From a virus: a stretch of DNA of 42,398 nt. The position numbers and the translations under genes were made by a program. Positions 9,742 to 25,373 of the stretch are shown one piece after another. Below the pieces are notes generated by a model that did not search any database, had not been told where the DNA came from, and saw nothing but the letters and a program-made list of their open reading frames with translations. Positions within the stretch are counted from its first letter, which is position 1. Each line of letters starts with the position of its first letter. The stretch lies in the IMG/VR virus record IMGVR_UViG_3300045988_081729; one strand, given 5' to 3'.

Positions 9742-12700
9742 TCATTCTCCTGCCTTTCTTTCGGTTCTCCCTAGTCTCCTGTTTCTCAATTTCTTCACGT
9801 GTATACGTTGCAGTCGCCTTTCCGATTTCTCTTCCGTCCAGATTAACCGGTACATAGATGGTATATTTTCCATTACTGCTATACTGATAGCTGTCATTCA
9901 GATCTTCAGATCCAGTCCGAAGGCTCATTCCGATTTCCGGTGCAGGTGTAAGCTCCGGAATCTGTATCAGCTCCATGGCTGCCTGCTTTGCTTCCTGAAC
10001 ATGATCCATAATGCCGTTGATCCAACCAATACCGAAATAGTTGCCCAGCTTGTCCGTCACTCGCGCGGGACTGTGAATCTGCGCTTTTGCCCGGATCGCC
10101 GCTTCTGCAGCCGCCGCAAGCTGTGCCGCCACTGCTCTTACATGGCCGACCTGGCTTGCCATACCGTTAGCGAGACCCATGCCGATGTAAGCACCGCTGT
10201 TATAGGCCCCACCTGCCGATGATCGCATGGTAATTACGATTGAATTTGACATTGTTTCTGCTGTAGAAACCGCCCTTGACATTCCAGCTGAAACGCCATT
10301 ATTAAAATTATTTCCAACCGCATTTCCAGAAGTCTTCGCTTTACTTTCTCCTTGGGAAAACTGCTTAATCAATGCACTGATCGCAGATTTCGCCTTGTTT
10401 CCCAATGCATCCAGCCCAGAATTCACAACATTCACGCTGGAGCGCATACCTGTAAGCGATTTTTCAGCGCTTTTCGCATTTCCAGCGATTGACTTCATAC
10501 TGGAATTTACTGATTTCAGAGCAACTACCATAAGACCGGTTCCTGCGGCTCCGGCCACCATTGCCGCTGCAAATACGCCAACTGTTACAGCTGCCGCGCC
10601 AGAAGATCCTGCCAAAATCACAAAAACTGCACTGGCCGCAGTACCAGATCCAAGTAATGCCGTCAATCCAGCCGCACTGGCCTTTGCGCCAGCCGCTACA
10701 AGTGGAAATGCTGCTCCCATAATCGTCAAACCTGCACCTGCCATCACAAGCGAAGCTCCAAGCACCGCTGCTCCGGCAGCCAATGCAATTACTCCTGCGG
10801 CTGCAGCCAGTGCAGTTACGCCGACCAACGCAAGACCAACTCCGAGCACGGTTGCGCCAACTCCTCCAACAGCAGCTCCGGTGCCAAAAACAATCATGCT
10901 TGTGCCAAGCTGAGCAATAGCTACCGCTCCCTGGATTCCATATTGTACAATTGAAGGAAGAACAGCGGACACAACCGCCAATGCCGCGCTGGCAATCAAC
11001 GCACCTGTTGCTACCAAAACAATAGCGGCTCCAAATGCAATAAAGCCAACTGCTCCCGCTGTTAGTGCTGGTCCAAGAGCAGCCGCTCCAACTGCCAACA
11101 AAGCGATTGCCGCAACCATGCCAACCATACATCCAATAGCCAGCGGACCGGCATTTGCAAGATTAATAGCCGCCAAGGATAACAAACTGATTCCGGCTGC
11201 TGCAATTAATACCGCAGCGCCAAACGCAACAAATCCAACCGCTCCGGCCGAAAGCGTTGGCGCTACACTCTTGGCCACCAGCATCAAGCCGCCAAGTGCA
11301 ACCACCATTCCTACCATTACGCCGATAGCCAGCGGACCGGCACTCGCCAACTGAATCGAAGAATATGCCAAAAGTGCCAAACCTGCGCTAATCATTAGCA
11401 CAGCCGCTCCCAACGCCAGAAGCGCCGGTGCCATCGCTGTTAATTTCTTTGAGCCGCCGGACATAGATGAAAACATTTTCGTCATACCAACTGCGAGCCC
11501 TACTACCACGCCAATCAAACCGGCAAAAACAGCTATTGCCCCCGGACCAGCATTGGCTACTGCAATTGCCGACTGTGCAAGCAAGTAGAATCCTGCGCTG
11601 ATCGCCAGCACTCCAACGCCCATCATCATAAAAGCCTTGGCAGACGCTACCATTTTCTTCGCACTACCGCCGCTGGATTTTCCAACTGCCTCCTGGCCTT
11701 TTGAAACACCAAATAGCCCAGGTGCGATTTTCCCGAGTCCAGCCTTTGCCAGCCCTCCAACAGCTCCTGTAAATGCGCCAACAAACGGTGCTACAGCCTT
11801 AACGATTTTAAAGCCTTTATATGCAATCAAGAGTTTCGGAAGTGCCACCGCTACTTTTGCAATCGCGTCTGAATGTTTTTCCAAAAATCCCGAAACTGCT
11901 ACAATTCCATCTTTGACCTCTCCCAAAGTGGTAGAGAAATTTTCAATACTTTCTGTGCTACCAAAAGAACCTGAAAGCTTCTTAATATCTCCTATGATCG
12001 CCCCAGCCGCATCGCCCAGCGCCGTTCCCGCTTCCAATGCGTCCGTTTTGAAAATATCCCAATATGGTTTTGCTTTCTCAACCATTGATTCTATTTTATC
12101 GACAGCCTTTTCGATCCCTTTTCCGCTGGCAAGCTTTTCATCAATTTTTCCAACCGTCTCAGTTGCGATGCCAACCAAACCTCTCATTTTTCCGCCAACC
12201 TGGTTGAATGCAGTAATTCCAAGTCCTTCCATAGCAGACTGCAGTTTCACGACATCGTGCCGAAAATTATCCATTTTGATCTCTGCCATTTCTTTGGCTG
12301 CACCGTCACTGTTATAAATGGCATTGGTTAACTTGTCAAAATCCTCTGGTGCCGCACTCACGATTGAAAGCAGACCTGACATACCCTCTTTTCCAGCTAA
12401 CGTAGCAGCGTATTTGGCCTTTAACGCTCCCTCTGCTCCATAAGCCTTTTCCGTTAAATCTGCTAATGCTTCATTATACTTCTTTTCTGTCAGCTCTCCA
12501 TTGGCATACTTTTCGTCAAGTTTTGCAAGGTTCTCTTGGAACTGATCCATTGGCATTTTGCATTGTCCAAATGCACCGCGCAGATCGGTTACAATGTCCA
12601 TCAGAGACTTCATCGAGCCATCACCATTCTGCAACGATATGCCCAAATAATCCATTGCGTCACTGATATCATCTGTTGGCTTTGCAAGATTCGTCAGAAT

Positions 12701-13447
12701 AGTTCGAAGGCTACTTCCGGCCATGCTGCTTTTCAATCCTGATGAAGCCATGAGACCGAGAGCGATGGCTGTATCTTCTACACTATAGCCTAACGATCCA
12801 GCTACCGGAGCCGCATATTTAAATGATTCACCCAACATGGCAACATTTGTATTGGAATTGGCCGAAGCCGCTGCAAGAACGTCAGCAAAATGTGAAGCGT
12901 TAGAAACTTCTTTCGTAAAACCATCTTTAATAATTTTGGTTGTGCCATCTGCTGATAAGCCGAACGCTGTCATCGCATCTGTTACAATGTCAGAAACGCC
13001 TGCCAAATCTTCTCCCGACGCTGCGGCTAGATCCATTACACCTTCGATTCCATTTAACATATCCTCAGTTTTCCAGCCGGCCATTGCCATATACTCCATC
13101 GCAGAAGCTGTCTCGCTTGCGGTGTACTGCGTGAATTTTCCAAGCTGTTTTGCCTTTTCAGACAGTCTATCAAAGTCGGATCCTGTAGCTCCGGAAATAG
13201 CTGCTACAGACGACATAGCATTCTCAAAATTCGCGCCAGCGTTTATTGCACCAGCAGTCAAGCTTTTCAGTCCGCTTCTGATTGCCGAGACTGCCTTGGA
13301 TCCAATCGCCGCCATAGCACCAAATCCAATTCCACTTGTAAGCGTATTTTTCAGATTATCAGCATAACTGCTACATGATTTCATCATTGACGAGAAGTTT
13401 TTATCTTCCGCGCACAAAACCGCTTTTACGCTATAAGATTCTGCCAT
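9734..13447 (-). CDS. Tail tape measure protein (1237 aa)
   Basis: N-terminal TP901-type TMP core (...NFENAMSSVAAISGATGSDFDRLSEKAKQLG...MEYMAMAGWK...). Position after the G/GT chaperones. Very long Ala/Gly/Val hydrophobic repeat region. Confidence 0.9.
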   Translation of the reverse strand: MAESYSVKAVLCAEDKNFSSMMKSCSSYADNLKNTLTSGIGFGAMAAIGSKAVSAIRSGLKSLTAGAINAGANFENAMSSVAAISGATGSDFDRLSEKAKQLGKFTQYTASETASAMEYMAMAGWKTEDMLNGIEGVMDLAAASGEDLAGVSDIVTDAMTAFGLSADGTTKIIKDGFTKEVSNASHFADVLAAASANSNTNVAMLGESFKYAAPVAGSLGYSVEDTAIALGLMASSGLKSSMAGSSLRTILTNLAKPTDDISDAMDYLGISLQNGDGSMKSLMDIVTDLRGAFGQCKMPMDQFQENLAKLDEKYANGELTEKKYNEALADLTEKAYGAEGALKAKYAATLAGKEGMSGLLSIVSAAPEDFDKLTNAIYNSDGAAKEMAEIKMDNFRHDVVKLQSAMEGLGITAFNQVGGKMRGLVGIATETVGKIDEKLASGKGIEKAVDKIESMVEKAKPYWDIFKTDALEAGTALGDAAGAIIGDIKKLSGSFGSTESIENFSTTLGEVKDGIVAVSGFLEKHSDAIAKVAVALPKLLIAYKGFKIVKAVAPFVGAFTGAVGGLAKAGLGKIAPGLFGVSKGQEAVGKSSGGSAKKMVASAKAFMMMGVGVLAISAGFYLLAQSAIAVANAGPGAIAVFAGLIGVVVGLAVGMTKMFSSMSGGSKKLTAMAPALLALGAAVLMISAGLALLAYSSIQLASAGPLAIGVMVGMVVALGGLMLVAKSVAPTLSAGAVGFVAFGAAVLIAAAGISLLSLAAINLANAGPLAIGCMVGMVAAIALLAVGAAALGPALTAGAVGFIAFGAAIVLVATGALIASAALAVVSAVLPSIVQYGIQGAVAIAQLGTSMIVFGTGAAVGGVGATVLGVGLALVGVTALAAAAGVIALAAGAAVLGASLVMAGAGLTIMGAAFPLVAAGAKASAAGLTALLGSGTAASAVFVILAGSSGAAAVTVGVFAAAMVAGAAGTGLMVVALKSVNSSMKSIAGNAKSAEKSLTGMRSSVNVVNSGLDALGNKAKSAISALIKQFSQGESKAKTSGNAVGNNFNNGVSAGMSRAVSTAETMSNSIVITMRSSAGGAYNSGAYIGMGLANGMASQVGHVRAVAAQLAAAAEAAIRAKAQIHSPARVTDKLGNYFGIGWINGIMDHVQEAKQAAMELIQIPELTPAPEIGMSLRTGSEDLNDSYQYSSNGKYTIYVPVNLDGREIGKATATYTREEIEKQETRENRKKGRRMNV

Positions 13448-13871
13448 CTGTTCGCCCTCCTTTCTTTAACAACTTGGATATTCCAACGAAACGCGGATCG
13501 CTCTTCTTACGTTTCTTTTCCTTCACATTTTTTAATTCTTTTTCATAGTCGAAGAAATTTCGGAATCTTTTGTATACTGGCACTGTTTTCTTCCCAGATT
13601 TTTTCTGCGCCTGGGCAGCAAAATTCAGAAAGGCTTGCCGATGTGCCCTGTATTCGTCGTCTACTATCCGATATCTCAGCGCTTCCATCATAATTTCGTA
13701 CTGTGCTATCGTCAGACGATCAACCTGCTCAAACGATGTGAATCCCAAATACCGGAAGCAGCTGATTGCAGCTTCCCGGTATTGTTCTTCGAAGCTCGCC
13801 TCTTCATGAGTTATATCGCCTACTTCTTCGCTTTTTCTTCCTCGATCGTCTTCTCGAGATTCTGGACGCAT
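13431..13871 (-). CDS. Tail assembly chaperone, T segment (expressed as a G-T fusion by -1 frameshift, 13431-14191)
   Basis: ORF in the -1 frame relative to G, overlapping the G 3' end. No convincing independent RBS. Canonical position upstream of TMP. Confidence 0.7.
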   Translation of the reverse strand: MRPESREDDRGRKSEEVGDITHEEASFEEQYREAAISCFRYLGFTSFEQVDRLTIAQYEIMMEALRYRIVDDEYRAHRQAFLNFAAQAQKKSGKKTVPVYKRFRNFFDYEKELKNVKEKKRKKSDPRFVGISKLLKKGGRTDGRIL

Positions 13872-14191
13872 TTCTTCGTAGCATTTGCACTCTTTAAGAA
13901 ACCCATCGTATCTTCGAAGAGCTGATTGATATCGGTATCCGGATCATCAATATATTCATCCAGAATTTCTGTAGTTGCTCTCGGATTCTGCCCTTTATTC
14001 GCTACGAGTAACAGATCCTCAAGAGACTCTACATCTCCGTCCATGATCCCTGCCACAGCGTATCTCAGGCCAATATTCTTCTTAGCATCTTTTACTCCGT
14101 CTACCGGCATAGTTACTTTTTTATTCATTTCTCTCATGAATCCCATGCCAAAATTAAACTGATACACCTGTCCATTGATTGTAAGTTCCAT
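13820..14191 (-). CDS. Tail assembly chaperone G
   Basis: 123 aa, acidic, between major tail protein and TMP. AAGGAGA RBS. Followed by the overlapping -1 ORF. Confidence 0.75.
   Translation of the reverse strand: MELTINGQVYQFNFGMGFMREMNKKVTMPVDGVKDAKKNIGLRYAVAGIMDGDVESLEDLLLVANKGQNPRATTEILDEYIDDPDTDINQLFEDTMGFLKSANATKKCVQNLEKTIEEEKAKK
13829..13840 (-). other. Candidate -1 programmed ribosomal frameshift site of the G/GT chaperone pair
   Basis: Minus strand GAA GAA AAA GCG in the G frame. The A5 run (13833-13837) allows a -1 slip of tRNA-Lys. The -1 frame continues ...K SEEVGDITHEE... into the T ORF, 3 codons before the G stop. Confidence 0.6.
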
Positions 14192-14214: not shown

Positions 14215-14240
14215 AAAAAAGAGGACGATTGCTCGCCCTC
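14215..14240 (-). terminator. Rho-independent terminator/attenuator after the major tail gene
   Basis: Minus strand GAGGGCGA-GCAA-TCGTCCTC (8-bp stem, GNRA loop) followed by TTTTTT. Confidence 0.7.
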
Positions 14241-14247
14241 TGCATTT

Positions 14248-14778
14248 TTACGCTCCTGTTTTAGTTGTATCTGTAAATACGTATGCCGCTACTTCCTGCT
14301 GTGCGGCTGTCACTGTCACATCGCCTTTCTCGCCGGTTCCGTTTACGCCAAAGGTAAGGGATACTTCTACCATATCCTCGGCATTCGAAGTCTTTTCCAG
14401 CTCCGTTACGTAACCCTGGAAATATTTTCCCTTGAATTTATTGCTTCCGCTGGATGCTGGTTCATCCAGATTTGCTTCCCAGATCTCGACCAGTTCATCA
14501 TTGATCATGGCATCTTCAAGAGAGTCGATCAGTGTGTCGCCCTTGGCAAGAATACTGGTTGCCGTAATCTCAACCTCGGCTGCTCCCGGGGTTCGAATCG
14601 TGCCGTCCTTGGTCTCTGTGGTATCTGCATCCTTGCTTGTCGTTCTTCCGTTTTCTGTCGTAAAGGCTAATGCTGTAGCTGCATTTTTAGCCGCGTCTTT
14701 TTTAAGGCGGTACAGATAAACGATCTTTTTACCACGTACCGCATCTGCGAATAACTGTAAATCAATTGTTTTTCTCAT
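14248..14778 (-). CDS. Major tail (tube) protein, phi13/TP901-1-like
   Basis: 176 aa in the position before the chaperones. ...KIVYLYRL...LAFTTENGRTTSKDADTTETKDG...EVEITA... pattern typical of siphovirus tube proteins. Carries an N-terminal IDLQLFA motif. Confidence 0.8.
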   Translation of the reverse strand: MRKTIDLQLFADAVRGKKIVYLYRLKKDAAKNAATALAFTTENGRTTSKDADTTETKDGTIRTPGAAEVEITATSILAKGDTLIDSLEDAMINDELVEIWEANLDEPASSGSNKFKGKYFQGYVTELEKTSNAEDMVEVSLTFGVNGTGEKGDVTVTAAQQEVAAYVFTDTTKTGA

Positions 14779-14787
14779 GCTGTTCTC

Positions 14788-15174
14788 CTAACTGAATAAA
14801 AAAGTCACTTCCACGATGCCGTGAAGGAGTGGCTGGTTGGTAGTTGTGTCCGGCAATATTCTCTGATTCAAGTCCTGCACGGACCAGGAGAAGCTGCCGG
14901 TATGTTCCAGTTGTCTGCAAATCTGCTTGATCTGCAGAATCATCTGTGAAACTGTGCCTCGCTGCCGCGGATTGTCGTGCCAGACGTGGATTGTCTGGCT
15001 TACAATGCCGAACACGGCTGTTTTATTGGCTCTGTCATTCAAATCACTGTCTGCCAGATAGACAAACGGATATGGTGTGCCTTCCGACGGTAAAAACGTG
15101 TCATACACACTGCCTGGATACTGTTTTTTCAATTCCAGAAGCAATGCACTGAATAATTCCTGCTGTGGATCCAT
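14788..15174 (-). CDS. Tail terminator / tail completion protein (DUF3168-like)
   Basis: 128 aa directly upstream of the major tail gene. Call is based on position and size, with weak motif recognition. Confidence 0.55.
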   Translation of the reverse strand: MDPQQELFSALLLELKKQYPGSVYDTFLPSEGTPYPFVYLADSDLNDRANKTAVFGIVSQTIHVWHDNPRQRGTVSQMILQIKQICRQLEHTGSFSWSVQDLNQRILPDTTTNQPLLHGIVEVTFLFS

Positions 15175-15178
15175 CGTG

Positions 15179-15514
15179 TCACCTCGTAAGCTTTTTCAGA
15201 TCAGATTTGAATTTCTCTTTCTGTGCTGTATAGGAAGGGCGCATATACGGCTGTGCGTTCATATATCGGGTTCCATACTCCACGTATGCCGCATACTCTG
15301 CTGTAGGCTCCACTTCCGCTGTAAGACCGCTATCCCGGATCTCAAGTCCAATGCTTCGTTTCAAGTTACCAGTATCCACCGGTACCTTTCTCTGCGCCGA
15401 CTCCTGCAGGGCTGCCCCATTACTTTTCACAATCCGCTTAACATCGTTCATTTGCACATTTTTCTTCAATTTGACCTGCAGCTTCTCCATTCCTTCCAGC
15501 TTGATTTTCGGCAT
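15179..15514 (-). CDS. HK97 gp10-family neck protein
   Basis: ...VPVDTGNLKRSI...EYAAYVEYGT... is the hallmark of the HK97 gp10 family. The first codon in the track is TTG. ATG at 15514 overlaps the upstream stop (TGATG). Confidence 0.8.
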   Translation of the reverse strand: MPKIKLEGMEKLQVKLKKNVQMNDVKRIVKSNGAALQESAQRKVPVDTGNLKRSIGLEIRDSGLTAEVEPTAEYAAYVEYGTRYMNAQPYMRPSYTAQKEKFKSDLKKLTR

Positions 15515-15816
15515 CAAACCACCTCCGATAAAATAAAAGTCTGTTTCACACGTAATTTCCGCGTATAGTCCACTTTGTAGGTCGTGTTTCCAATCCGGAT
15601 CCTGTCAAACGGCTTCTGATAATGGTTCTGGAGCTGCACTGTCACGCTGCCCTGACGGATCCCGCCGTATACGATCCGCATGATTTCCGCCCGCGTATCC
15701 ATCACAGATGCCATTTTCCGCACCTCTGTTACCTGATCGTCGGCATAGTTTCCAGTCGTTGGATCATACTCACCCGGCAGGACTCGCCGGAAGAAAATTG
15801 GCGTATCGTATCTCAC
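15514..15816 (-). CDS. Head closure / head-tail adaptor protein (SPP1 gp16-like)
   Basis: 100 aa with GTG start in a GTGA overlap with the upstream stop. Call is by position and size. Confidence 0.55.
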   Translation of the reverse strand: MRYDTPIFFRRVLPGEYDPTTGNYADDQVTEVRKMASVMDTRAEIMRIVYGGIRQGSVTVQLQNHYQKPFDRIRIGNTTYKVDYTRKLRVKQTFILSEVV

Positions 15817-16139
15817 AGAAACTTCACCTTTCCCTTCCTTGCCTCCCGCTGGCTGTCCAGATAAGACTGAATATCATCCATGTACTCGGCAAAATCATTT
15901 TCAGACCAGGAAAGGCTCTCGCCCTCAACACTGTGAGAGGAGAGCCCTTCTGATCCGATTCGGTTGAATCGAATGACTGAAACATCCAATATGATGTATT
16001 CCATTTCTTCCGGCGGCTCCAGACCGCCAAGAAGAAATTTCAACCGCTGTTTCGTGGCATTCAGAATCAGCTGTAGCTGCTGTTCTGTCTTTTTATCTGT
16101 GTCTTCCAGTCCAAGAAGCAGTTTCAGATCTTCGAGCAT
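15813..16139 (-). CDS. Head-tail connector protein (gp6-like)
   Basis: 108 aa. N-terminus MLEDLKLLLGLEDTDKKTEQQLQLIL... is typical of gp6-like connector proteins. AGGAGG RBS. Confidence 0.65.
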   Translation of the reverse strand: MLEDLKLLLGLEDTDKKTEQQLQLILNATKQRLKFLLGGLEPPEEMEYIILDVSVIRFNRIGSEGLSSHSVEGESLSWSENDFAEYMDDIQSYLDSQREARKGKVKFL

Positions 16140-16342: not shown

Positions 16343-17545
16343 TCAGCTCTTCACAGCTACTGTTACATCGCCGGAACGGACTGCTTTATAGTTCTGATCA
16401 CACTCAACCAGCGTGATGTGATGGGTTGCTGTAGATGCGATTTCGGATTCTCCATCCCATTTGCTCCAGTTTTTCACGTCATCGCCGTATTTCACGGTAG
16501 TCGCGGATGCCGCATCTTTGTACTTCCAGCAGTTTTTCATAGACATCAGCTGCTCTTTTACGGAGATCTTTGTTTTTCCTGTTTCAGATCCTTCTGCCGC
16601 CGTTACGGTCAGTTTTCCAAGAGTCTGTGTATCCGCTCCACCAACGGAGATGTAGGCGATGGCATCCAGGTACTCACAGAATAAGCGCAGACCCATAATA
16701 GCGTACAGATCCGAAATTGCTCTCTCGTAGGTACCCTGTGCATGGAAACCGATAAAATGAGTAGTCGGGTCCGTTGTATAGCTGAGGCCAGCTTTTACGA
16801 ACTCAGAGTCGCCCGGATCGATGTAATATCCGATGATGTTGTTGAGTGGAGTAGCAATGACGACGTTTTCCGGGATTTCAGAGCTTACGAAGACAACATC
16901 AGCGCCAAGGAATTTCTTCATGTACTCAAAGCCGAACGCTGTCTGCAGGGAGATATCCGCGGCACCGACATATTTATACACATCCAGTGTATTTACCCAT
17001 ACTGCTACGCCGGTAGCCGTTCTTCTCATCTTTTTGAACTTATCTTTAACCTTTCCGATTGCCATAGCAACCGCCATCTGCCAAGTGCTTTCATGGTCAG
17101 TCAGAGAACCTGCTTTCAGCTGTGCGTACAGCTTATCCATGACAACGTTCTGCAGATCGGTTTTGAACTCTTCGTCGGTATCCTGTACTGCGGCATCATA
17201 TCCCTTTTCCGCGATTGCCTCCAGGGTTACTCCCTTACGATACTTGCTGATTTTAATAGTATCAAACGGAATTTCTTCCACAGCGTACTGGGAGTACGGG
17301 ATCTCTTCGCCCTCTGCGACCTCACCGGACTGCAGGTTTCCTGTCACCTTTTTTGTCTTTAAAACGGTGTTGTTATCTTTCTTGATCATTCGGATAATGC
17401 CCAGGACGTCAAGCAGTGCCTGAATGTTTTTGCCGAAAGATGTTACGAAATCAATCTCACGGGCTTTTACCTGGATCTGTGCCTGACCTGTCATGTTATC
17501 CGGTGCCGCAAATACCTGCAGCCCTAATTTTCCAATTCTATGCAT
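16343..17545 (-). CDS. Major capsid protein with an extra C-terminal domain
   Basis: 400 aa directly after the scaffold gene, AGGAGGA RBS. N-terminal propeptide MHRIGKLGLQVFA. The last ~90 aa (TLGKLTVTAAEG...VTVAVKS) look like an Ig-like decoration domain. Confidence 0.85.
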   Translation of the reverse strand: MHRIGKLGLQVFAAPDNMTGQAQIQVKAREIDFVTSFGKNIQALLDVLGIIRMIKKDNNTVLKTKKVTGNLQSGEVAEGEEIPYSQYAVEEIPFDTIKISKYRKGVTLEAIAEKGYDAAVQDTDEEFKTDLQNVVMDKLYAQLKAGSLTDHESTWQMAVAMAIGKVKDKFKKMRRTATGVAVWVNTLDVYKYVGAADISLQTAFGFEYMKKFLGADVVFVSSEIPENVVIATPLNNIIGYYIDPGDSEFVKAGLSYTTDPTTHFIGFHAQGTYERAISDLYAIMGLRLFCEYLDAIAYISVGGADTQTLGKLTVTAAEGSETGKTKISVKEQLMSMKNCWKYKDAASATTVKYGDDVKNWSKWDGESEIASTATHHITLVECDQNYKAVRSGDVTVAVKS

Positions 17546-17557
17546 GCTGTTTTCCTC

Positions 17558-18193
17558 CTACTGAAATAATGCAATATTTTCCGCAATCAGCCGCTGCCGT
17601 TCAATTGGGTTGCTGACTGCAAGAATCTGTTCTTTTGTCACAGCACCTTTTCCGCCGGATCCGCCCTTTGGGGCATTTCCTTTCAGGGCATCTTTTACGG
17701 CAGCCTGTACTGCATCCTTGTACATCTTTGTGAAAGCTTCGACTGCCGTCTTGGTATCCTCAGCGCTTTCCGATACCAGATGTGCCAGAAGTTCATCCGG
17801 GATGTTGATTTCTTCATCTGCCAGCATCTTTCTGGCCGTCTTTGACATTTCCGAGAGCGAATTCTGCCGTTTCAGATCTGCCAGTTCCTTTTCCAACTTC
17901 CGGTTTTTATACTCCGCTTTCTCTTCCTTTGTCATCTTCGCCAGCTTTTCCGCCTCTGAAAGCTTATCATCAGTCAGTGCCTGCCACTTTTCCTGCGCTT
18001 TGGTCACTGCTGTATTTACCGCTTTCTGCACTCTGCGGTCGAACTCCGCGCGATTCTCTGCCTGCCCCAGAAAATCATCAAACGACATCTCATTGCCGCT
18101 ATCTCCAGAACCTGCTCCAGCTCCGTCCTCGTTTCCGTCTCCGGCTCCGCTGCCGTCTCCTTCGCCGTCTGCAAATACCTGCAGGTTGATCAT
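17558..18193 (-). CDS. Capsid scaffolding protein
   Basis: Start moved to ATG 18193 (GGAGAA RBS), giving MINLQVFADGEGDGSGAG... Highly charged, helical, Ala/Lys/Glu-rich. Upstream of the capsid gene. Confidence 0.8.
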   Translation of the reverse strand: MINLQVFADGEGDGSGAGDGNEDGAGAGSGDSGNEMSFDDFLGQAENRAEFDRRVQKAVNTAVTKAQEKWQALTDDKLSEAEKLAKMTKEEKAEYKNRKLEKELADLKRQNSLSEMSKTARKMLADEEINIPDELLAHLVSESAEDTKTAVEAFTKMYKDAVQAAVKDALKGNAPKGGSGGKGAVTKEQILAVSNPIERQRLIAENIALFQ

Positions 18194-18324
18194 CGGGATT
18201 CTCCAATGATAATGGTTGTTTTTGCGCTTCATTATTTTTCTGTCCTTTCTGCCCCGTCCCGTTCTGTAATAGCCCCGTGCCGTTGCTCCGGAATCATAGT
18301 TTAACGACATTTCGGTCACATCGG

Positions 18325-18612
18325 TTACACGATCCGGACATGCTCCGGAAATTCATCGACCATCAGACAGATGCCGACAAAAAAGGAATCCACCAGAGTT
18401 CTTGCTCTCTCTGATAGATTCCCATACTGTATATCAACCCATCCGGGCGATACTTCGTATTCTATTTCATCCCCTGTCAGATCCTCAATCGAGTGGATCA
18501 GCGTCCGCACAAGGCTGGAAACGCCCGCGCAGACAATATCCTGCCCATGTGGTGCGTACATTGCATGACCGGACACAGTCAATCGGTCTTTTCTTACCGT
18601 TACATCAATCAA
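18325..18612 (-). CDS. prp: Prp-family cysteine protease (ribosomal-processing protease homologue, DUF464)
   Basis: 95 aa: MIDVTVRKD...SGHAMYAPHGQDIVCAGVSSL..., the His/Cys dyad context of Prp. TTG start. Confidence 0.75.
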   Translation of the reverse strand: MIDVTVRKDRLTVSGHAMYAPHGQDIVCAGVSSLVRTLIHSIEDLTGDEIEYEVSPGWVDIQYGNLSERARTLVDSFFVGICLMVDEFPEHVRIV

Positions 18613-18677: not shown

Positions 18678-18989
18678 CTACTCTGCTGTGTAATCTTCAA
18701 TGACCGGAATACCGTACTCAATAGCACATGTATTTTCGATCTTGCACCCTCTGGCATCCTGCCAGCCTTTCGCAAAGTAGGCAATGTCAGCACCAGCCAG
18801 AAGTTCCAGGGATTTTCCAAGGAACCAGAGTGGCTTTGCATCCACCGGAGCTTCCTGGAAGAAAGAATCAATAACCTCTACTTGCTCTCCAATCACGTCT
18901 TCTGCACTCTTGATTGCTTTCTTACGTTCTGCAAGGATATCTTCATCAGACTTTCCTTTCATTGGCTGTGAAATAAACAATTTCTTCAT
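18678..18989 (-). CDS. DUF4406-like protein (nucleoside 2-deoxyribosyltransferase-like fold)
   Basis: Start at ATG 18989 (AGGAGGATTAATC). MKKLFISQPMKGKSDEDI...LLAGADIAYFAKGWQDARGCKIENTCAIEYGIPVI matches my memory of the DUF4406 pattern (YISGPM...GWE.S.G...E). Confidence 0.5.
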   Translation of the reverse strand: MKKLFISQPMKGKSDEDILAERKKAIKSAEDVIGEQVEVIDSFFQEAPVDAKPLWFLGKSLELLAGADIAYFAKGWQDARGCKIENTCAIEYGIPVIEDYTAE

Positions 18990-19000
18990 GATTAATCCTC

Positions 19001-19516
19001 CTAATCTGCAAACACCCAATCATCTGCAAGCATATCTGCCTGACTTGCGAGCCATCCCATCTGTACTCCTGATGTTCCGACAAATGCGATAGCCATGTTT
19101 CCGATAGCATCATGCTCGCAATTCACGATCTCCCCATCCGGCGTCTTATAAGAAATCCCAGTGGCGAGCTGAATGTACTGCTTTTTGCCGTTCCATCCTT
19201 TACGAGCCACCTTAAGTCCTCTTTTCAGATAACGGATAGCATCTCCAAAGCAAAATGTTGACTGACCGCCAAGAACACCACAATTCTTTTCATCAGCAAT
19301 CATCCAATCATCCCTCTGTGTGTGCATGAAAGTATATTCCACCCTCTGTGTTTCACGGATATCAAGAACTTCTCCCTGTCCTTTGTCGGAATCTTTTGAT
19401 CTGCAATGAATCATAATTGTCTGCTTATCAATGTCCCAACACCAGTAACCATTCCAACCAGGAAGTTTCACCTTTTCTCCATGTTTCATTGCTTCAAATG
19501 CTTCTTTGAAATTCAT
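19001..19516 (-). CDS. Tandem DUF2829 (Tad2-like) domain protein
   Basis: Two copies of the DUF2829 signature. Copy 1: MNFKEAFEAMKHGEKVKLPGWNGYW...DDWMIAD. Copy 2: FGDAIRYLKRGLKVARKGWNGKKQYIQL...MLADDWVFAD. AGGAGG RBS. Confidence 0.7.
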   Translation of the reverse strand: MNFKEAFEAMKHGEKVKLPGWNGYWCWDIDKQTIMIHCRSKDSDKGQGEVLDIRETQRVEYTFMHTQRDDWMIADEKNCGVLGGQSTFCFGDAIRYLKRGLKVARKGWNGKKQYIQLATGISYKTPDGEIVNCEHDAIGNMAIAFVGTSGVQMGWLASQADMLADDWVFAD

Positions 19517-19529
19517 GATTTACTACCTC

Positions 19530-19799
19530 CTATTCTTCTGTATGACATGTATTTGTTATTTTACCATATACATCCTCATAAAGTTCCTGCTTGTCACCGT
19601 TGTAGGTGTATTCGGCATAGATACCATCTCCGCTGATAGTGGTTGATGCAAGGCACTTATAATTCTGAAGTGTTTTGCATGACCATACCACGAATACATT
19701 TCCAAGGTCGATCTGAACTTCCGGTCTGTTCTTGTGGTACCATTCAACGAGTTTCTTCTGTGCTACACTCTCGAAATGTGCCATTCCTGTGATAATCAT
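19530..19799 (-). CDS. Hypothetical phage protein (89 aa)
   Basis: ATG with AAGGTGA-type RBS. ...FVVWSCKTLQNYKCLASTTISGDGIYAEYTYNGDKQELY... resembles a conserved small phage family whose function is unknown to me. Confidence 0.6.
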   Translation of the reverse strand: MIITGMAHFESVAQKKLVEWYHKNRPEVQIDLGNVFVVWSCKTLQNYKCLASTTISGDGIYAEYTYNGDKQELYEDVYGKITNTCHTEE

Positions 19800-19819
19800 A
19801 TTTCACCTTGTCCTTTCTT

Positions 19820-19862
19820 AAAAATGTGTATAAAAATACCACCGGCCTCTCGACTGGTGGTA
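19820..19862 (-). terminator. Rho-independent terminator closing the Zn-ribbon/YjcQ cassette
   Basis: Minus strand TACCACC-(12 nt)-GGTGGTA followed by TTTTTATACACATTTTT, starting 2 nt after the stop at 19864. Confidence 0.6.
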
Positions 19863-19863
19863 A

Positions 19864-20226
19864 CTATGAAATAATTGCGCCAAGTAATGCAGACAAGATC
19901 ACGTTGAATGTTTCGGCACAATATTCTTTTGCTTTCTGCATACGGCTGTTTTCTTCCAGGAACTGTACGCCCTCAAACGTAATCTCAAATGGTCTGTCTG
20001 TTTGGGGCATTGGCGCGTCTTTTGTTTTGTCAATGACTGCAAACCCTGTAATATATCCCTTCCTTACAAGTGTTACAATGATCTTGCACCAATAGCTTTG
20101 CGGAATATCAAATAATTTTGAATTCCAGGCAAACTGTTCGAGTTCCGGTTCTACGCCGAGTTTCATGCATTCGTACAGATATCTCAGTATTTTATACATG
20201 ATTACTTCCATGTCATTCTTTGCCAT
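19864..20226 (-). CDS. YjcQ-family winged-helix protein, paralogue 2 (120 aa, hydrophobic C-terminal tail)
   Basis: MAKNDMEVIMYKILRYLYECMKLG...IPQSYWCKIIVTLVRKGYITGFAV...FLEENSRMQKAK. Clear paralogue of the upstream gene. AAGGAG RBS. Confidence 0.7.
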   Translation of the reverse strand: MAKNDMEVIMYKILRYLYECMKLGVEPELEQFAWNSKLFDIPQSYWCKIIVTLVRKGYITGFAVIDKTKDAPMPQTDRPFEITFEGVQFLEENSRMQKAKEYCAETFNVILSALLGAIIS

Positions 20227-20251
20227 TATCGTTTTTGCTCCTTAAACAGTT

Positions 20252-20584
20252 TTATACGAACGGGACCATCTCTTTTACGTCCTTCAACGTCCTTTTTGCC
20301 TTTTCAAGCAACGAATTTTCGAACAGATAGGAAATACCTTTCGGCGTGATAATGGTATCGGGCAGATCGCCTAAAAGAACGCCATCTTTCGTATGATTGA
20401 CGGCAATACCTTTTACATACCCTTCTGTAATCAAGCTTAAAATGATATACTGCCAATAATTTTCGGGAATATTATAGGCTGATGCCGTAAGGTAACACGC
20501 TTCTGGTTTTTCACCCTTTTTCAAACATTCATACAGATATTTCAGTACCTGATATACGATCACAAAGTAATCATTCTGAGCCAT
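20252..20584 (-). CDS. YjcQ-family winged-helix protein, paralogue 1 (110 aa)
   Basis: The track start is GTG. ATG 20584 has an AAGGAGA RBS at 8 nt. MAQNDYFVIVYQVLKYLYECLKKG...IPENYWQYIILSLITEGYVKGIAV...LFENSLLEKAK. Confidence 0.7.
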   Translation of the reverse strand: MAQNDYFVIVYQVLKYLYECLKKGEKPEACYLTASAYNIPENYWQYIILSLITEGYVKGIAVNHTKDGVLLGDLPDTIITPKGISYLFENSLLEKAKRTLKDVKEMVPFV

Positions 20585-20603
20585 TTGCACCGTCTCCTTA
20601 TCA

Positions 20604-20774
20604 TCAGTTGATAATTAACTGATTCTTGCAAGAATCACAGTAAAAAGTATTGGTTTTTTCACGGTCGCCAACAGGAATCATGATTCCTGTTTTACATTTT
20701 TTGCACAAAACTTTTTCGCCTTTCCTCAAGAGCTTTACTCTCTCATGAGGCGGAATATTCAGAGTATTCGTCAT
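20604..20774 (-). CDS. Small zinc-ribbon protein (56 aa), missing from the ORF track
   Basis: Hand translation: MTNTLNIPPHERVKLLRKGEKVLCKKCKTGIMIPVGDREKTNTFYCDSCKNQLIIN (CxxC...CxxC). GGGAGTG RBS. The stop lies 17 nt before the next start. Confidence 0.6.
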   Translation of the reverse strand: MTNTLNIPPHERVKLLRKGEKVLCKKCKTGIMIPVGDREKTNTFYCDSCKNQLIIN

Positions 20775-20780
20775 AAACAA

Positions 20781-22187
20781 TCACTCCCATTTCAGATTCG
20801 GATATTTATCATTTATATGATTAATTATATCCTGGAGCACTTTCTCTGTCAATTCAATGTTTTGATGCCTGTACTCGTTCACATAGCATTGCAGTTCTTG
20901 ACTTTTGGTATTTGGCTTGTTGATTTTGGCATGCGTGGCCTCGTGAATCACCGTAATAGCCGTTTCACGAACCGTTTTGGTATTATCAGCATAAATGTTG
21001 ATTTCTCCATCTTCGAAAAGTCCGTCCAGTCCTTCATCAACATCAACTCCGTACCATACCTTTATTTGAATATCATTTTCCTGAAGATATTCCAACATTT
21101 CCGTTCCGATGCTGGACTTTTTCATTTCTTTCATGATATTTCGAGGTTTGATAACGTCTCGCCCCTTTGATCTGCCATCCAATGTTTGGAATATTCCTTC
21201 GTTGTCTTTATATCTTGCCTTTCTGTTTTTCGATGCTTCCCGTTCTTCTGTGGTACCACCCTGTTCCAGAAAGTCCAACCATTTCTCATATTCTGCACTG
21301 TCTTCATAGGCTGCCGTGGAGCAGTGACACCGCGGATGCATCGGCGGCGCGTTCGTCCCCGGCATCATATCCTGCACTTTGAAATGCTTACCATCCAACG
21401 CCTGGCACCGCTCGCAGACATCTGCATTCCCGCAGGCAACGTATGTATATTCTTCGAATCCATTTCGAATATAGGACTGCTTCTGCGCTTCTGTCTGGAC
21501 TCTGGCAAGCTCCGTGACCATGAGCCGCTCTGCATCCTCCCGGCTTGCACCGAAGCGTTTCTGCAGGTGCACCGCAAGCTCCCGCGGGTTCTTGCCCTGG
21601 ATTAGCCCTGTTTTCAGCAGCTTGTCCAGCTCTGCTTTCAGCATATCCTGATACATCCAGATTCGATCGGAATAAGTGGCGTTATGGAATGACGCATCGA
21701 CAATTGCCCGCGCCATTTTTCCATTTTCCTGCACGGAATTGCCAAGAATACCCGCCTGCCTGCGAAATTCTTCTATTGTCTGCTGTGTCAGCGTCTTGTC
21801 AAAATATTTCTGCAGTTCATCGAAACCGGATACCATTTCCAGCCCGATATTGGCTTTCAGCAGTTCCAGACGGTTGATCTTCATGGTTGCATTGTACAGC
21901 CGCATCTCTTCATTCGCCTGGTCGGAAAAATCTTTTTCTTTGACGTATTTCGCCGCTTTCCTGCCATACTCTTCGATATCGAGCTTGGAAACCCTTCTCT
22001 TTGCTTCTGCCAGCGAAATCTTCTCAGCATTGGCGTATTTTGCGTAAAATCCATCGATTTCCTTCTGAATCTGATCCGCCATATACGCATAGGTCTTCCG
22101 GATCTCTTCTGCATAGGTCTGCTCAGACATCTTATTCTTCTTGGCATGTTCCGTCTCACGTTTCTGCCAGTATTCCTTACTCGTCAT
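20781..22187 (-). CDS. Head morphogenesis protein (SPP1 gp7 / Mu F family) with a C-terminal HExxH extension
   Basis: MuF core ...LMVTELARVQTEAQKQSY...CERCQALDGKHF...PPMHPRCHCS... Start taken at ATG 22187 (the track start is TTG 22205). The last ~140 aa are extra and contain VIHEATHA (20931-20945). Confidence 0.85.
   Translation of the reverse strand: MTSKEYWQKRETEHAKKNKMSEQTYAEEIRKTYAYMADQIQKEIDGFYAKYANAEKISLAEAKRRVSKLDIEEYGRKAAKYVKEKDFSDQANEEMRLYNATMKINRLELLKANIGLEMVSGFDELQKYFDKTLTQQTIEEFRRQAGILGNSVQENGKMARAIVDASFHNATYSDRIWMYQDMLKAELDKLLKTGLIQGKNPRELAVHLQKRFGASREDAERLMVTELARVQTEAQKQSYIRNGFEEYTYVACGNADVCERCQALDGKHFKVQDMMPGTNAPPMHPRCHCSTAAYEDSAEYEKWLDFLEQGGTTEEREASKNRKARYKDNEGIFQTLDGRSKGRDVIKPRNIMKEMKKSSIGTEMLEYLQENDIQIKVWYGVDVDEGLDGLFEDGEINIYADNTKTVRETAITVIHEATHAKINKPNTKSQELQCYVNEYRHQNIELTEKVLQDIINHINDKYPNLKWE
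20824..20852 (-). promoter_or_regulatory. Perfect sigma-A consensus promoter embedded in the 3' end of the MuF gene
   Basis: Minus strand TTGACA (20852-20847), 17 nt, TATAAT (20829-24), about 45 nt upstream of the Zn-ribbon ATG. Confidence 0.65.
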
Positions 22188-23511
22188 CCTGTCCACCGCC
22201 GCCAAACATCTGCTTCATCACTGGATCCGCTCTCACCTTGTTCTGATCGGTATCAATTTTCTTGATTTCATCCTGTACATTGTCCACAATAGACAGCACC
22301 CCGAGCTGTGTTTCCTGGCTGACCACACCTTCCAGATTCTTCGCGATCTCTGCCTCTTCCTGCAGGTTTGCCGGGAAATTTGGTGTAAAATGTGGATGGA
22401 TCTTCACCCAGTCATCTTTTTTCATTCCTGAGACCGGATTTGAGAAAATCAGACGATACCTCCGGTTCATTCCGCTGGTAAATTTCCGCTCTTTCGTTTT
22501 TTCCAAGTTACTCATTGCCTGCAGCTTATATTTCATGGCGATGCCGGAACTGGTGCCAAAATTCTCATCCGAGATATTGGCCACCATGCTGATATGGAAA
22601 ATGAGCTTTTCCAGACGATCGATCAGATGCTCCTGCGTGGTATCACCATCCGGTTTCTGAAGAAATTCGACAATCAACCGTTCGGTGTCCCCGTCGAAAT
22701 TAATGATTCTGTCATCCCGGATATGCGCCACATCGTCTTCTTCCAGCTTGGAACCAAGAACCTTGAGATAGGCATCCGCGAAATAGTCAACATCATTGGC
22801 TTTCTCGCTGATCGCCTTGTTGTATGCATTAATCATCGTAAGGACCGGCTCGAAGATTCCCATACGCTCCTTGTTTTCTACGTACTCCGATGCCGGAACG
22901 CCGTCGAAGCCGTGTATCTTCTCGTCTGCATCCCAGAGTAATTTTCCTTTGATTGTAAACCAGCGGACCTTCGTCTCGTCCGATACGCTTCCATGAAGGA
23001 TCTGATTCGAATCGTAATACAGCCGCACGAAATATCGTTCCCTTTCCAGCACGGAATCGTCGTAGATCATGAATGCATCCAGCGGGCTCAGATAGGTGAT
23101 ACCGATATTTCCGTTCTCATCTACGTAATACATTTCATAGCCTTTGCCGAAGATACTGCAGATCTTGGACAGTTCGGCATTGTTATCGTCCTGATCATTA
23201 TACTGATCCAGAAAATCAACATATTTCTCAACCGCTTCGTTTCCATCGTCTACCTGCAGTTTGATCGGATGCCCGATGAAGAAGCCGTTCATCGTATCCA
23301 CGATGTATTTCGCAAAGTTGACCATGATCCGGTTGTCCGGCTTCCACTTGGGCTTTAACGGCTCATGCAGGATCGGGTAATCCGTCTCGTAGGCCTCCTG
23401 CAGCATGCTGTATCTAAATGCGCACTCTCCGGAATGCCGCATGATAAATTCGTTCAATTTGGCATCTGTCAGCGTCTCTTCCGACGGTAGCCTATACAAA
23501 TTCGTTCGCAC
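22177..23511 (-). CDS. Portal protein (SPP1 gp6-like)
   Basis: 444 aa immediately after terL. GTG start with an AAGGAGGG RBS 8 nt upstream. Sequence pattern fits the SPP1-type portal family. Confidence 0.85.
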   Translation of the reverse strand: MRTNLYRLPSEETLTDAKLNEFIMRHSGECAFRYSMLQEAYETDYPILHEPLKPKWKPDNRIMVNFAKYIVDTMNGFFIGHPIKLQVDDGNEAVEKYVDFLDQYNDQDDNNAELSKICSIFGKGYEMYYVDENGNIGITYLSPLDAFMIYDDSVLERERYFVRLYYDSNQILHGSVSDETKVRWFTIKGKLLWDADEKIHGFDGVPASEYVENKERMGIFEPVLTMINAYNKAISEKANDVDYFADAYLKVLGSKLEEDDVAHIRDDRIINFDGDTERLIVEFLQKPDGDTTQEHLIDRLEKLIFHISMVANISDENFGTSSGIAMKYKLQAMSNLEKTKERKFTSGMNRRYRLIFSNPVSGMKKDDWVKIHPHFTPNFPANLQEEAEIAKNLEGVVSQETQLGVLSIVDNVQDEIKKIDTDQNKVRADPVMKQMFGGGGQDDE

Positions 23512-23513
23512 TT

Positions 23514-24758
23514 CTATATCCCTCCTTTCACCTTTCTGTTCAGCCGTGGTTTCGCCTTGCGTTCTTCCTCAATGGAGTATCGAAGCATCGCCATGGCATC
23601 ATCAAAAAATGGAACTGGCTCTTCGAGATAAGTGTTGGTACGCTCATCCTTCTTCCACTTCCATTGCTGAATTTCTTTTATTGTATTGACGCAGGACGGG
23701 TAAATATGGATTCTGTGCTGTTTCAGGTAATCTATCTGGGCATGCACGCTGTTCGGCTCCTTCTGCACGCCTTTTGCGCGGTATCCCGCCTTCTGCCACA
23801 TCTTGATACGGTCCGGCTCCGCAGAATCGCACCACATGCGCAGGCGCTTGTTGAACTGCCCCTCCGCCAGCCGGATGATCTCGTCCGTGTCCATCTCATA
23901 CACGTACAGTTCCCGGCATAGATACAACTCACCATCCTTAAAGCCAACCTCACCGATGCAATTGGCGTGATTGAATCCGAAATCCTGTGCATTGACCATG
24001 TAATCGAATCGTTCCGGTGAACAGTCAAATTCTTCGACAACATAGTTTTTGAGGATCAGTCCGGCGACCTCGCCCCATTCCCCCAGGCCATATACCCGAT
24101 ACCCCTCTGGATCCACTTCCTTACGCCGCATCATACGTCTTCGGTAGGCATCATCGATAAAGCGGTTCTGCTCGTAGGTTGACTGATGTGTCAGAACATC
24201 CGGATCTGACCGGTCAAAAAACACACGCTTAATCCAGTGGTACGCCGATACCGGGTTGAACGTCATCCGTATCTGATAGAACTGTCCATCCGGCAGTTCA
24301 CCACGGAGACGGTCATCAATGATCTCGAAGTCCGCCTGCGTAATTTCCGTGGCTTCTTCAATCCACACATCGGTCAACTTTCCACGCTTGAAAGTAATGG
24401 ATTTCAGCTTTTCACGCTGTTTCTCATCATTGACTCCACGGAAAATGATCTGATTCCTGTTGATCTTACACTCCATAATCATGTTGGAGCTGTTGATGTG
24501 CCAATATCTCTTATACTGCTCCCCAAACATACGAAAAATAGCACCCTGCAATTCTGCAAAAGTGCTATCCCTGTTTGTCACGTCCGCCTTTCGAACGCAT
24601 AGAAGATTTCTTCCCGGATCCTGCATCAGCCGCAGGATATAATTCTGCGCCGTATCAACGCTCTTCCCCGATCCGGCAGAGCCTTTCATAACAATATACC
24701 GTTTTCGGTTGCGGTCAACTTCTTTGAAGCCTGGGTTCATCTGGACGTTTATGTTCAT
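23514..24758 (-). CDS. terL: Terminase large subunit (PBSX/Terminase_3-like)
   Basis: Walker A KGSAGSGKS near the N-terminus. Nuclease-half acidic motifs. ATGA overlap with terS. Confidence 0.9.
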   Translation of the reverse strand: MNINVQMNPGFKEVDRNRKRYIVMKGSAGSGKSVDTAQNYILRLMQDPGRNLLCVRKADVTNRDSTFAELQGAIFRMFGEQYKRYWHINSSNMIMECKINRNQIIFRGVNDEKQREKLKSITFKRGKLTDVWIEEATEITQADFEIIDDRLRGELPDGQFYQIRMTFNPVSAYHWIKRVFFDRSDPDVLTHQSTYEQNRFIDDAYRRRMMRRKEVDPEGYRVYGLGEWGEVAGLILKNYVVEEFDCSPERFDYMVNAQDFGFNHANCIGEVGFKDGELYLCRELYVYEMDTDEIIRLAEGQFNKRLRMWCDSAEPDRIKMWQKAGYRAKGVQKEPNSVHAQIDYLKQHRIHIYPSCVNTIKEIQQWKWKKDERTNTYLEEPVPFFDDAMAMLRYSIEEERKAKPRLNRKVKGGI

Positions 24759-25270
24759 CCGGAATCGTCCTCTCCGTAATTAATTGTGATGTTGAGATCC
24801 ATATCTGTATCCAGCTCAACTTTATCCTTGAACATACCAAGGTGTTTTCCAAGAAGCTCCAGTGCTCTCATCTTATCATTTAATCGGACTTCCCTTTCAA
24901 CTGACGATCCTTTTTCACCATCCATAGTTTTAACTTTTACTGACTGAATACATGCCAAATCATCTTCTGTGGCATCTGCTCGAATAGAAGCATCTTCAGA
25001 ATTGATTACTTTTTGCGGATTCACAAAAGCTATTCGCGCCAGTTCTTGGATTACTCTGTCTTGGTTGATACCTGTCCTTTTTGACCTTTCGGCCATTGCC
25101 TGCTGAATCGCTTCTGAAACTGGAGTTTTCTGGAGTAATTCATTTCCTATTTCGCTGGCTCTTTGTGAGTTTCCTGCTTTATAGCCAGCTCTGATCGCGG
25201 CCTGCGTTGCATTCAGGTCGATCAGATACTCCTCAACAAATCTCTGCTGCTTTGCAGTCAATTTTGCCAT
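24755..25270 (-). CDS. terS: Terminase small subunit (Terminase_2/P27 family)
   Basis: Start moved to ATG 25270: MAKLTAKQQRFVEEYLIDLNATQAAIRAGY... is the canonical Terminase_2 N-terminus. Confidence 0.85.
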   Translation of the reverse strand: MAKLTAKQQRFVEEYLIDLNATQAAIRAGYKAGNSQRASEIGNELLQKTPVSEAIQQAMAERSKRTGINQDRVIQELARIAFVNPQKVINSEDASIRADATEDDLACIQSVKVKTMDGEKGSSVEREVRLNDKMRALELLGKHLGMFKDKVELDTDMDLNITINYGEDDSG

Positions 25271-25299
25271 CCTGCAACACCGCCTTTCTGTTTCTGCAC

Positions 25300-25326
25300 G
25301 CAAAAATTCCCCGCATCTCTGCGAGG
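25300..25326 (-). terminator. Rho-independent terminator between the tRNA-like element and terS
   Basis: Minus strand CCTCGCA-GAGA-TGCGGGG (7 bp, one G-U pair) followed by AATTTTTG. Lies 30 nt upstream of the terS ATG. Confidence 0.6.
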
Positions 25327-25373
25327 AATCCTTATAAGAGTAACAAATCGGAGAATCTCCAGTCAATGGAGAG

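Follow-up and report, generated by a model that had tools for sequence, protein, structure and literature searches.

A phage-encoded Prp-family protease and L27-like leaders on the scaffold, capsid and tail-tube proteins of a temperate siphovirus

We analyzed the whole 42.4-kb stretch of DNA (42,398 nucleotides; hereafter the window) of IMG/VR virus record IMGVR_UViG_3300045988_081729. It holds the nearly complete genome of a temperate siphovirus, and the minus strand carries almost all of the genes. The virus encodes a 95-amino acid (aa) cysteine protease of the Prp family, and leaders resembling that of the precursor of ribosomal protein L27 (pro-L27) stand at the N-termini of three of its structural proteins, namely the head scaffolding protein, the major capsid protein and the major tail (tube) protein. 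The initial annotation of this DNA had described the protease and the leaders on scaffold and capsid. Our analysis confirmed that the feature is real and that the identification as Prp was right, and it enlarged the substrate set by the tail tube, the leader of which had been missed. In the reading that we favor, with a probability of about 0.72 judged from the sequences and by analogy with characterized systems, each of the three leaders is cut by the phage Prp behind its Phe.

The open reading frame (ORF) of the protease has a TTG start, and an in-frame TGA lies two codons upstream of it. The initial annotation had left open that the ORF might fail to align to Prp in a profile search; the PF04327 (Peptidase_Prp) profile matched with 72.3 bits (cut-off 27) over protein residues 1-92 and profile positions 1-89 of 90, which is nearly the full profile. 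Further, phrog_4478, labelled 'peptidase', matched the ORF at 5.5e-25. The stretch SGHAMYAPHGQDIVCAGVS comprises residues 14-32 of the protein. When the protein was compared with characterized Prp structures, as had been proposed, it aligned with the Prps of Staphylococcus aureus, Streptococcus mutans and Streptococcus pneumoniae, and His16 and Cys28 fell on the catalytic H22 and C34 of Staphylococcus aureus Prp (4PEO/7KLD). These two residues were invariant in alignments with phage and host homologues, and G15, H16, G23, D25, C28 and A29 were unchanged across 20 relatives and hosts. The AlphaFold2 model of the phage Prp (predicted local distance difference test score, pLDDT, 88.2) showed the element order E-E-H-E-E-H-E, which is that of the Prp fold. 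In a Foldseek search of the PDB the best 14 matches were all Prp (TMq 0.72-0.87), and the next match had E > 0.04. Because the PF04327 profile, the context of the His/Cys dyad and the predicted fold all agree, the 95-aa ORF is, on these grounds, a Prp-family (MEROPS C108) protease.

The phage Prp shares the Pfam family, the GH...GxDIVCA context of the dyad and the fold with the ribosomal Prps of Bacillota, for which structures are available from S. aureus (SAV1646, YsxB; 4PEO/7KLD/7JVS), S. mutans (2G0I) and S. pneumoniae (2IDL). In contrast to host Prps, it is shorter by approximately 10-15 residues, it is encoded outside the rplU-prp-rpmA operon and its presumed substrates are virion proteins. 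The gene is not found in a setting of rplU (L21) and rpmA (L27) but sits between accessory genes and the scaffold gene, whereas in Lachnospiraceae such as Dorea sp. 5-2 the true host Prps adjoin L27 and have lengths of 105-114 aa. The Prp and L27 sequences of hosts were drawn from genomes in which related prophages reside. The Dorea host Prp was 27% identical to the phage Prp. In a phylogenetic tree, which was based on short sequences and on host Prps from Lachnospiraceae only, one branch split the Prps of phages and prophages (n=23) from those of hosts (n=12) with a support of 85/86. By gene setting and sequence, the phage enzyme is not an orthologue of the ribosomal-processing Prp, and the tree indicates that phage Prps and host Prps are of separate descent. 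A recent capture of a host prp gene was rejected because of the low identity and the separate branch.

We then considered the leaders, the extents of which are given in Table 1. The scaffold ORF is readable from a GTG at 18319; its true start is the ATG at 18193-18191 behind GGAGA. This start yields MINLQVFADGEG and a protein of 211 aa; the start agrees with the annotation of Dorea phage DO134P1, and start and length agree with the genes called in relatives. The capsid protein begins at 17545 with MHRIGKLGLQVFAAPDN. Thus called, both N-termini carry the L27-like leaders that had been described. A six-frame motif scan yielded four matches, three of which were the N-termini of scaffold, capsid and tail tube, and the fourth was in a non-coding frame. 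Among the 41 proteins of the virus (12,678 aa), LQ[LVIFMY]FA occurred three times, each time within the first 13 residues. By an analytic estimate, the N-terminal 20 residues of all genes taken together should hold approximately 0.0018 matches (Poisson P ~1e-9), and the presence of leaders at three N-termini is more than chance.

The cut had at first been placed after Ala (LQVFA-DGEG). By analogy with L27 and phage 80alpha (PMC5744158), we place it between Phe and Ala (cuts are marked here by a slash, as in F/A), and the predicted mature N-termini are then ADGEG (scaffold), AAPDN (capsid) and ADAVRG (tail tube). The capsid tryptic peptide with the intact leader would be LGLQVFAAPDNMTGQAQIQVK, and the predicted mature semi-tryptic peptide is AAPDNMTGQAQIQVK. 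Together with LGLQVFAAPDNMTGQAQIQVK, a further peptide, TIDLQLFADAVR, would span a leader, and the tail tube cut as predicted would start with ADAVR.

The scaffold and capsid motifs had also been reported to be encoded by one DNA string. The string is present as a 14-mer, CTGCAGGTATTTGC, at 18171-18184 and 17508-17521, the low coordinates having been one base off. The chance of identical codons for the identical residues is approximately 0.026 with the codon usage of the phage, and the scaffold leader frequently reads LQLF in relatives. The shared 14-mer therefore carries no evidence; it is not conserved in relatives, and we dropped it as a meaningful signal. The protease gene does lie upstream of the scaffold gene, as stated before, at a distance of 131 nucleotides rather than directly.

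Close relatives of the virus were human-gut viral contigs and prophages of Blautia, Faecalicatena and Dorea, and its host is therefore likely a member of the Lachnospiraceae. We examined 64 IMG/VR contigs with readable genes as near relatives, and all three leaders were kept in 64/64. The scaffold leader had the form xNLQ[VL]F/[AT] in all relatives that could be read, and the capsid leader was conserved in relatives as KLGLQ[VA]F/[AT]. A profile scan found Prp relatives in at least 546 IMG/VR viral contigs, and a wider comparison covered the best 80 of these at least 546 contigs, the lowest Prp identity among them being 62%. In the range of 62-72%, the leaders were retained even in loci whose scaffold or capsid had been replaced by a type only 27-45% identical. 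Further, an equivalent LQLF/A leader was present on unrelated capsid types (27-33% identity) beside related Prps. As judged from these comparisons, the package of Prp and leaders persists through mosaic exchange of capsid and scaffold genes.

In four related loci (L106, L107, L113 and L157), the tail-tube orthologues were leaderless and started at the predicted mature end (M-GAIKGNKIVYLYRL compared with the predicted mature A-DAVRGKKIVYLYRL), while Prp and the scaffold and capsid leaders were present. The tail leader was therefore gained or lost independently. Tail-tube homologues were found in 158 deposited phage records, including Tuc2009, ul36, phiEf11, NF5 and many staphylococcal and streptococcal phages. 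Among the matches listed, the alignment started at query residue 7-13, mostly 13, in 38 of 40 records; Lactococcus phage CAP, in which it started at query residue 3, was an exception. Because of the leaderless orthologues and these alignment starts, the leader looks like an add-on that ends at the predicted cut.

Prp was encoded together with leaders on scaffold, capsid and a third protein in four cultured phages, the hosts of which belong to four genera. In Dorea phage DO134P1 these were NLQLF/A (scaffold), LGLQVF/T (capsid) and GLQVF/S (putative tail protein); in Enterococcus phage phiFL3A, NLQFF/A, NLQIF/A and DLQLL/A (major tail protein); in Brochothrix phage BL3, NLQLF/A, NLQKF/A and DLQKF/A (major tail protein); and in Acutalibacter phage Fontainebleau, NLQLF/D, NLQLF/D and DLQLF/D (a protein of 188 aa that has no annotation and occupies the tail-tube position). 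In phiFL3A and BL3 the Prp gene has the portal gene on one side and the MuF gene on the other, and no accessory genes are nearby.

In bacterial genomes, Prp was present in 113 of the 121 searched Lachnospiraceae genomes, and a second match, of the prophage type, was found in 10 of the 121. Nine stretches with a second copy were inspected, two of which end at a contig edge. Prp was beside leader-bearing ORFs in six of the nine (five with two or three leaders each, and L161 with one), and in L166 it was accompanied by a single leader upstream. A scan of a genome collection found Prp relatives at 4 loci. One of these, an 82%-identical Prp match in an 18.9-kb contig (L073, CAVLAW010000029.1), belonged to a metagenome-assembled genome of 'Tidjanibacter massiliensis' (Bacteroidota); this is most likely a binning error because all other hosts were Lachnospiraceae. 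In one metagenome relative (L070), a single-base deletion at 7255-7262 removes the capsid stop and fuses the capsid with the next ORF of 59 aa (464 aa in total). A programmed frameshift was rejected since the change is a single-base deletion in one metagenome contig, and the fusion is probably an assembly or strain variant.

How the system would work can be outlined from these data. The phage-encoded 95-aa His/Cys protease would stand in for a serine prohead protease. PHROG scans of the larger ORFs, including all genes from portal to capsid, detected no such protease of the HK97, ClpP, S78 or T4 type, in agreement with the initial annotation, though a HExxH domain is present in the MuF protein (see below). 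Three very abundant self-assembling proteins would be made with leaders ending in L-Q-[V/L]-F, followed by Ala, which copy the pro-L27 leader. An endopeptidase activity of the phage Prp after Phe in xNLQxF/A leaders is predicted by analogy; the enzyme would bind the leader and cut it as the host enzyme cuts that of L27, and mature scaffold, capsid and tail tube beginning with Ala would be released. Late in infection, thousands of leader-bearing subunits per cell would need processing. A matched protease would then free the structural module from the amount and specificity of the host Prp, and such independence may be the reason why the phage carries prp. We infer by analogy that cleavage takes place, that it takes place at F/A and that the phage enzyme performs it, instead of or beside the host Prp.

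We favor the phage enzyme as the cognate protease because enzyme and leaders remain together after gene exchange and in phages of different host genera, and because the leaders deviate in Fontainebleau and in a sister clade of Prps. In Fontainebleau, Asp instead of Ala follows the predicted cut in all three leaders. In the sister clade (L160, L183-L196), DRAC replaces DIVC at the catalytic Cys and the scaffold and capsid leaders are NLRLF/E and NLRLF/D, while the L27 leader of the host of one such prophage is NLQVF/A. This joint change of enzyme and leader may represent co-evolved specificity. Both cases support the general model and are no proof for the present virus. Specificity of Prp for the leader of its own species has been reported, in that Clostridioides difficile Prp leaves an S. 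aureus peptide uncut (PMC9405229). Such species specificity would give a mobile module a reason to carry a matched enzyme.

Several points weigh against this reading. The Lachnospiraceae hosts encode their own Prp, and their L27 leaders, M[LM][KN][LM]NLQ[FLIVY]F/AHKKG, include exactly LQVF/A and LQLF/A. Since they share the cores of the phage leaders, the host enzyme may do some or all of the cutting. The viability of 80alpha does not need cleavage (PMC5744158), and the phage gene may therefore give only a small advantage. The co-variation of enzyme and leader concerns two or three lineages of other phages and is anecdotal. Further, Prp is encoded just downstream of an accessory cassette that has a strong promoter-like site, and it may have a role outside morphogenesis.

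The strongest alternative is that the ribosomal Prp of the host cuts the leaders, as in 80alpha, and that the phage Prp is redundant or otherwise employed; for example, it might keep host pro-L27 processed during the flood of phage proteins or act on the L27 of the lysogen. We consider this possible but clearly less probable than cutting by the phage enzyme. The identity of core between phage leaders and the L27 leaders of likely hosts and the presence of Prp in 113 of 121 Lachnospiraceae genomes are in accordance with it, and the initial claim that the phage matures its proteins rather than relying on the host was, as stated, unsupported for the same reasons. The motif is also used without a phage protease by 80alpha and reportedly by the phi13 tail protein (PMC5744158), and a mobile-element protease of another family backs up bL27 processing in S. 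pneumoniae TIGR4 (10.64898/2026.08.10.744006). However, the phage Prp lies within the head module in phages of four unrelated host genera, in some directly between portal and MuF genes, and it is kept alongside the leaders despite mosaic exchanges. Further, in two lineages leaders and phage enzyme have diverged jointly, with the leaders departing from the motif of host L27, and a model with the host enzyme only does not predict this.

It is very unlikely that the leaders are uncleaved signals for assembly or chaperone binding and that the phage Prp has an unrelated substrate. The scaffold leader of 80alpha is indeed needed for assembly, while its cleavage is not needed for viability (PMC5744158). 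However, the motif is a documented Prp recognition and cut site, mature L27 and the mature 80alpha proteins lack the leader, and the leaderless tail-tube orthologues start at the predicted mature end. In addition, no other protein among the 41 encoded by the phage bears the motif.

The C-termini of MuF proteins are known as polymorphic cargo domains. We rejected the C-terminal HExxH domain of the MuF protein (20781-22205), the least probable candidate, as the leader protease: a HEATH motif lies in its last ~150 aa (20781-21230), with a weak match to the putative metallopeptidase DUF6782 (E 0.0021, 17.8 bits, cut-off 27), and phrog_595, 'head maturation protease', also matches the protein, but this match is confined to the MuF part and does not extend into the tail. 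The domain also varies, with other domains in its place in most relatives, as is expected of such cargo domains; no HExxH was present in the last 170 residues of 45 of 77 related MuF proteins, from a set of loci in which Prp and leaders are kept.

Among known systems, that of phage 80alpha has scaffold (gp46) and capsid (gp47) proteins which the host Prp processes by a cut between F and A, and an L27-like motif has been noted on the phi13 major tail protein (PMC5744158). 80alpha resembles the present phage in its short pro-L27-like leaders on scaffold and capsid, with cleavage at Phe/Ala (here predicted), and in its SPP1-like head module without a serine prohead protease. It differs in that the protease considered here is phage-encoded and of a lineage apart from host Prps (27% identity), in that three leader-bearing proteins can be read from the sequence of one genome, and in that the leaders are 7-12 residues long compared with the 13-14 residues removed in 80alpha.

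MEROPS C108 (clan CR) includes, besides S. aureus Prp, the protease of Streptococcus phage Cp-1, which removes 48 N-terminal residues of the major head protein (PMC12445089). Since the Cp-1 protease is placed in C108, capsid maturation by a phage-encoded enzyme of this family is an old experimental finding. Like the enzyme of the present phage, that of Cp-1 is a cysteine protease of C108 which is small and encoded by the phage itself, and it is essential for head maturation. In contrast to the present phage, with its leaders of 7-12 residues, Cp-1 is a podovirus with a 48-residue propeptide, and its tail proteins are not known substrates. Cp-1 orf13 (L197, 8805-9119, 104 aa, annotated 'hypothetical'), which we take to be the protease gene, gave a full-length match to PF04327 below the threshold (18.5 bits) with GH...C conserved; this match is consistent with the placement of the Cp-1 protease in C108. 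Cp-1 orf13 and the phage Prp showed no real similarity in hhalign (probability 2.9% over 24 columns), and the Cp-1 head protein has no L27-like LQxF/A motif.

In PHROGs (phrog_4478) and RefSeq, phage homologues of Prp bear the label 'peptidase'. phiFL3A gp45, BL3 gp6 and the Fontainebleau 'peptidase' belong to the same family as the phage Prp and occupy the same place in the head module; their annotation is by homology only. In the literature searched, we found no paper that links a phage-encoded Prp with L27-like leaders or tests such an enzyme, a mention in Wall 2015/2017 being possible. The paper on the structure of Brochothrix phage NF5 contains nothing on cleavage, and in two recent preprints from the discoverers of Prp, phages figure only as bearers of the leader.

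The positions of the genes and leaders are summarized in Table 1. The order of the head module, namely portal, MuF minor head protein, scaffold and capsid, is of the SPP1/80alpha style.

Table 1. Features of the window (positions in nucleotides; empty cells, no entry; a slash marks the predicted cut)
Feature	Position	Strand	Profile matches
Endolysin	171-1253		
Tail fiber	2249-8281		
Tape measure	9734-13447		
Tail chaperone pair	13431-14191		
Major tail (tube) protein, 176 aa	14248-14778	-	PF06199 65.9 bits; phrog_238 3.7e-53
Tail-tube leader MRKTIDLQLF, 10 residues, predicted cut F10/A11	14749-14778	-	
Tail terminator, neck and connector proteins	14788-16139		
Major capsid protein, 400 aa	16343-17545	-	phrog_544 (major head protein) 6.7e-34
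Capsid leader MHRIGKLGLQVF, 12 residues, predicted cut F12/A13	17510-17545	-	
Head scaffolding protein, 211 aa (DUF4355)	17558-18193	-	PF14265 102.6 bits; phrog_172 3.8e-49
Scaffold leader M-I-N-L-Q-V-F, 7 residues, predicted cut F7/A8	18173-18193	-	
Prp-family cysteine protease, 95 aa	18325-18612	-	PF04327; phrog_4478
Six-gene accessory cassette between MuF and Prp	18678-20780	-	
MuF-type minor head protein	20781-22205	-	PF04233 72.9 bits; phrog_115
Portal protein, SPP1 type; start of head module	22177-23511	-	phrog_64 3.4e-123
Terminase	23514-25366		
Replication, regulation and lysogeny module, ending in integrase	integrase 40695-41993		

Residues 318-398 of the capsid protein (16343-16600, minus strand) form a C-terminal Ig-like domain (PF18316, S-layer SbsC C-terminal domain, 43 bits), which, from this match, is probably a built-in decoration domain. 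Directly 3' of the major tail protein gene, a strong terminator-like hairpin of nine pairs followed by a T run was present at 14220-14241 (minus strand); such a hairpin is often seen behind highly expressed tail-tube genes.

The accessory cassette encodes a Zn-ribbon protein, two YjcQ paralogues, a DUF6275 protein, a two-domain Tad2-like protein (Thoeris anti-defence 2; 19001-19516) and a DUF4406 / nucleoside 2-deoxyribosyltransferase-like protein. A perfect 12/12 sigma-70 consensus (TTGACA-17-TATAAT) was found at 20852-20824, within the end of the MuF gene and upstream of the cassette. From its sequence, the ensemble of accessory genes and promoter-like site looks like a separately expressed moron or anti-defence cassette.

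The findings also bear on the annotation of Prp in public databases. NCBI gives the name 'ribosomal-processing cysteine protease Prp [Blautia sp.]' to a 95-aa protein (P0083) that occurred in 3,738 blocks of an assembly collection. In the loci inspected (L069-L072) this protein is a prophage copy, the neighbors of its gene being those of portal, MuF, scaffold and capsid. The name thus misleads for prophage copies, being unsupported by their gene context, and because these copies bear it, the apparent copy numbers of Prp are inflated.

The system is a variant of a known mechanism, common in gut phages and recognized in annotation. A further proposal, which we make tentatively and regard as doubtful, is that the protease and its tags make up a transferable module, complete in itself, for the maturation of head and tail, and that a prophage copy also processes host bL27 and so provides a back-up in the lysogen. 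Because the tags of the phage are indistinguishable from the host pro-L27 leader, a prophage Prp could process host bL27. If so, strains with such a prophage would be less dependent on their own Prp and less sensitive to its inhibition, and approximately 1 in 12 of the searched Lachnospiraceae species genomes carried a second Prp copy. This has a bearing on Prp as an antibiotic target, since mobile copies that recognize the same tag could, in principle, act as a reserve for the host enzyme. Dorea phage DO134P1, which is cultured and has the same module, may serve as a testable model. If the phage enzyme works as we propose, tailed phages of Bacillota have a class of maturation protease beside the serine prohead proteases, in which a Prp-type cysteine protease of ~95 aa recognizes a 5-residue tag on head and tail-tube proteins, and a single enzyme would set the timing of assembly for two distinct structures.

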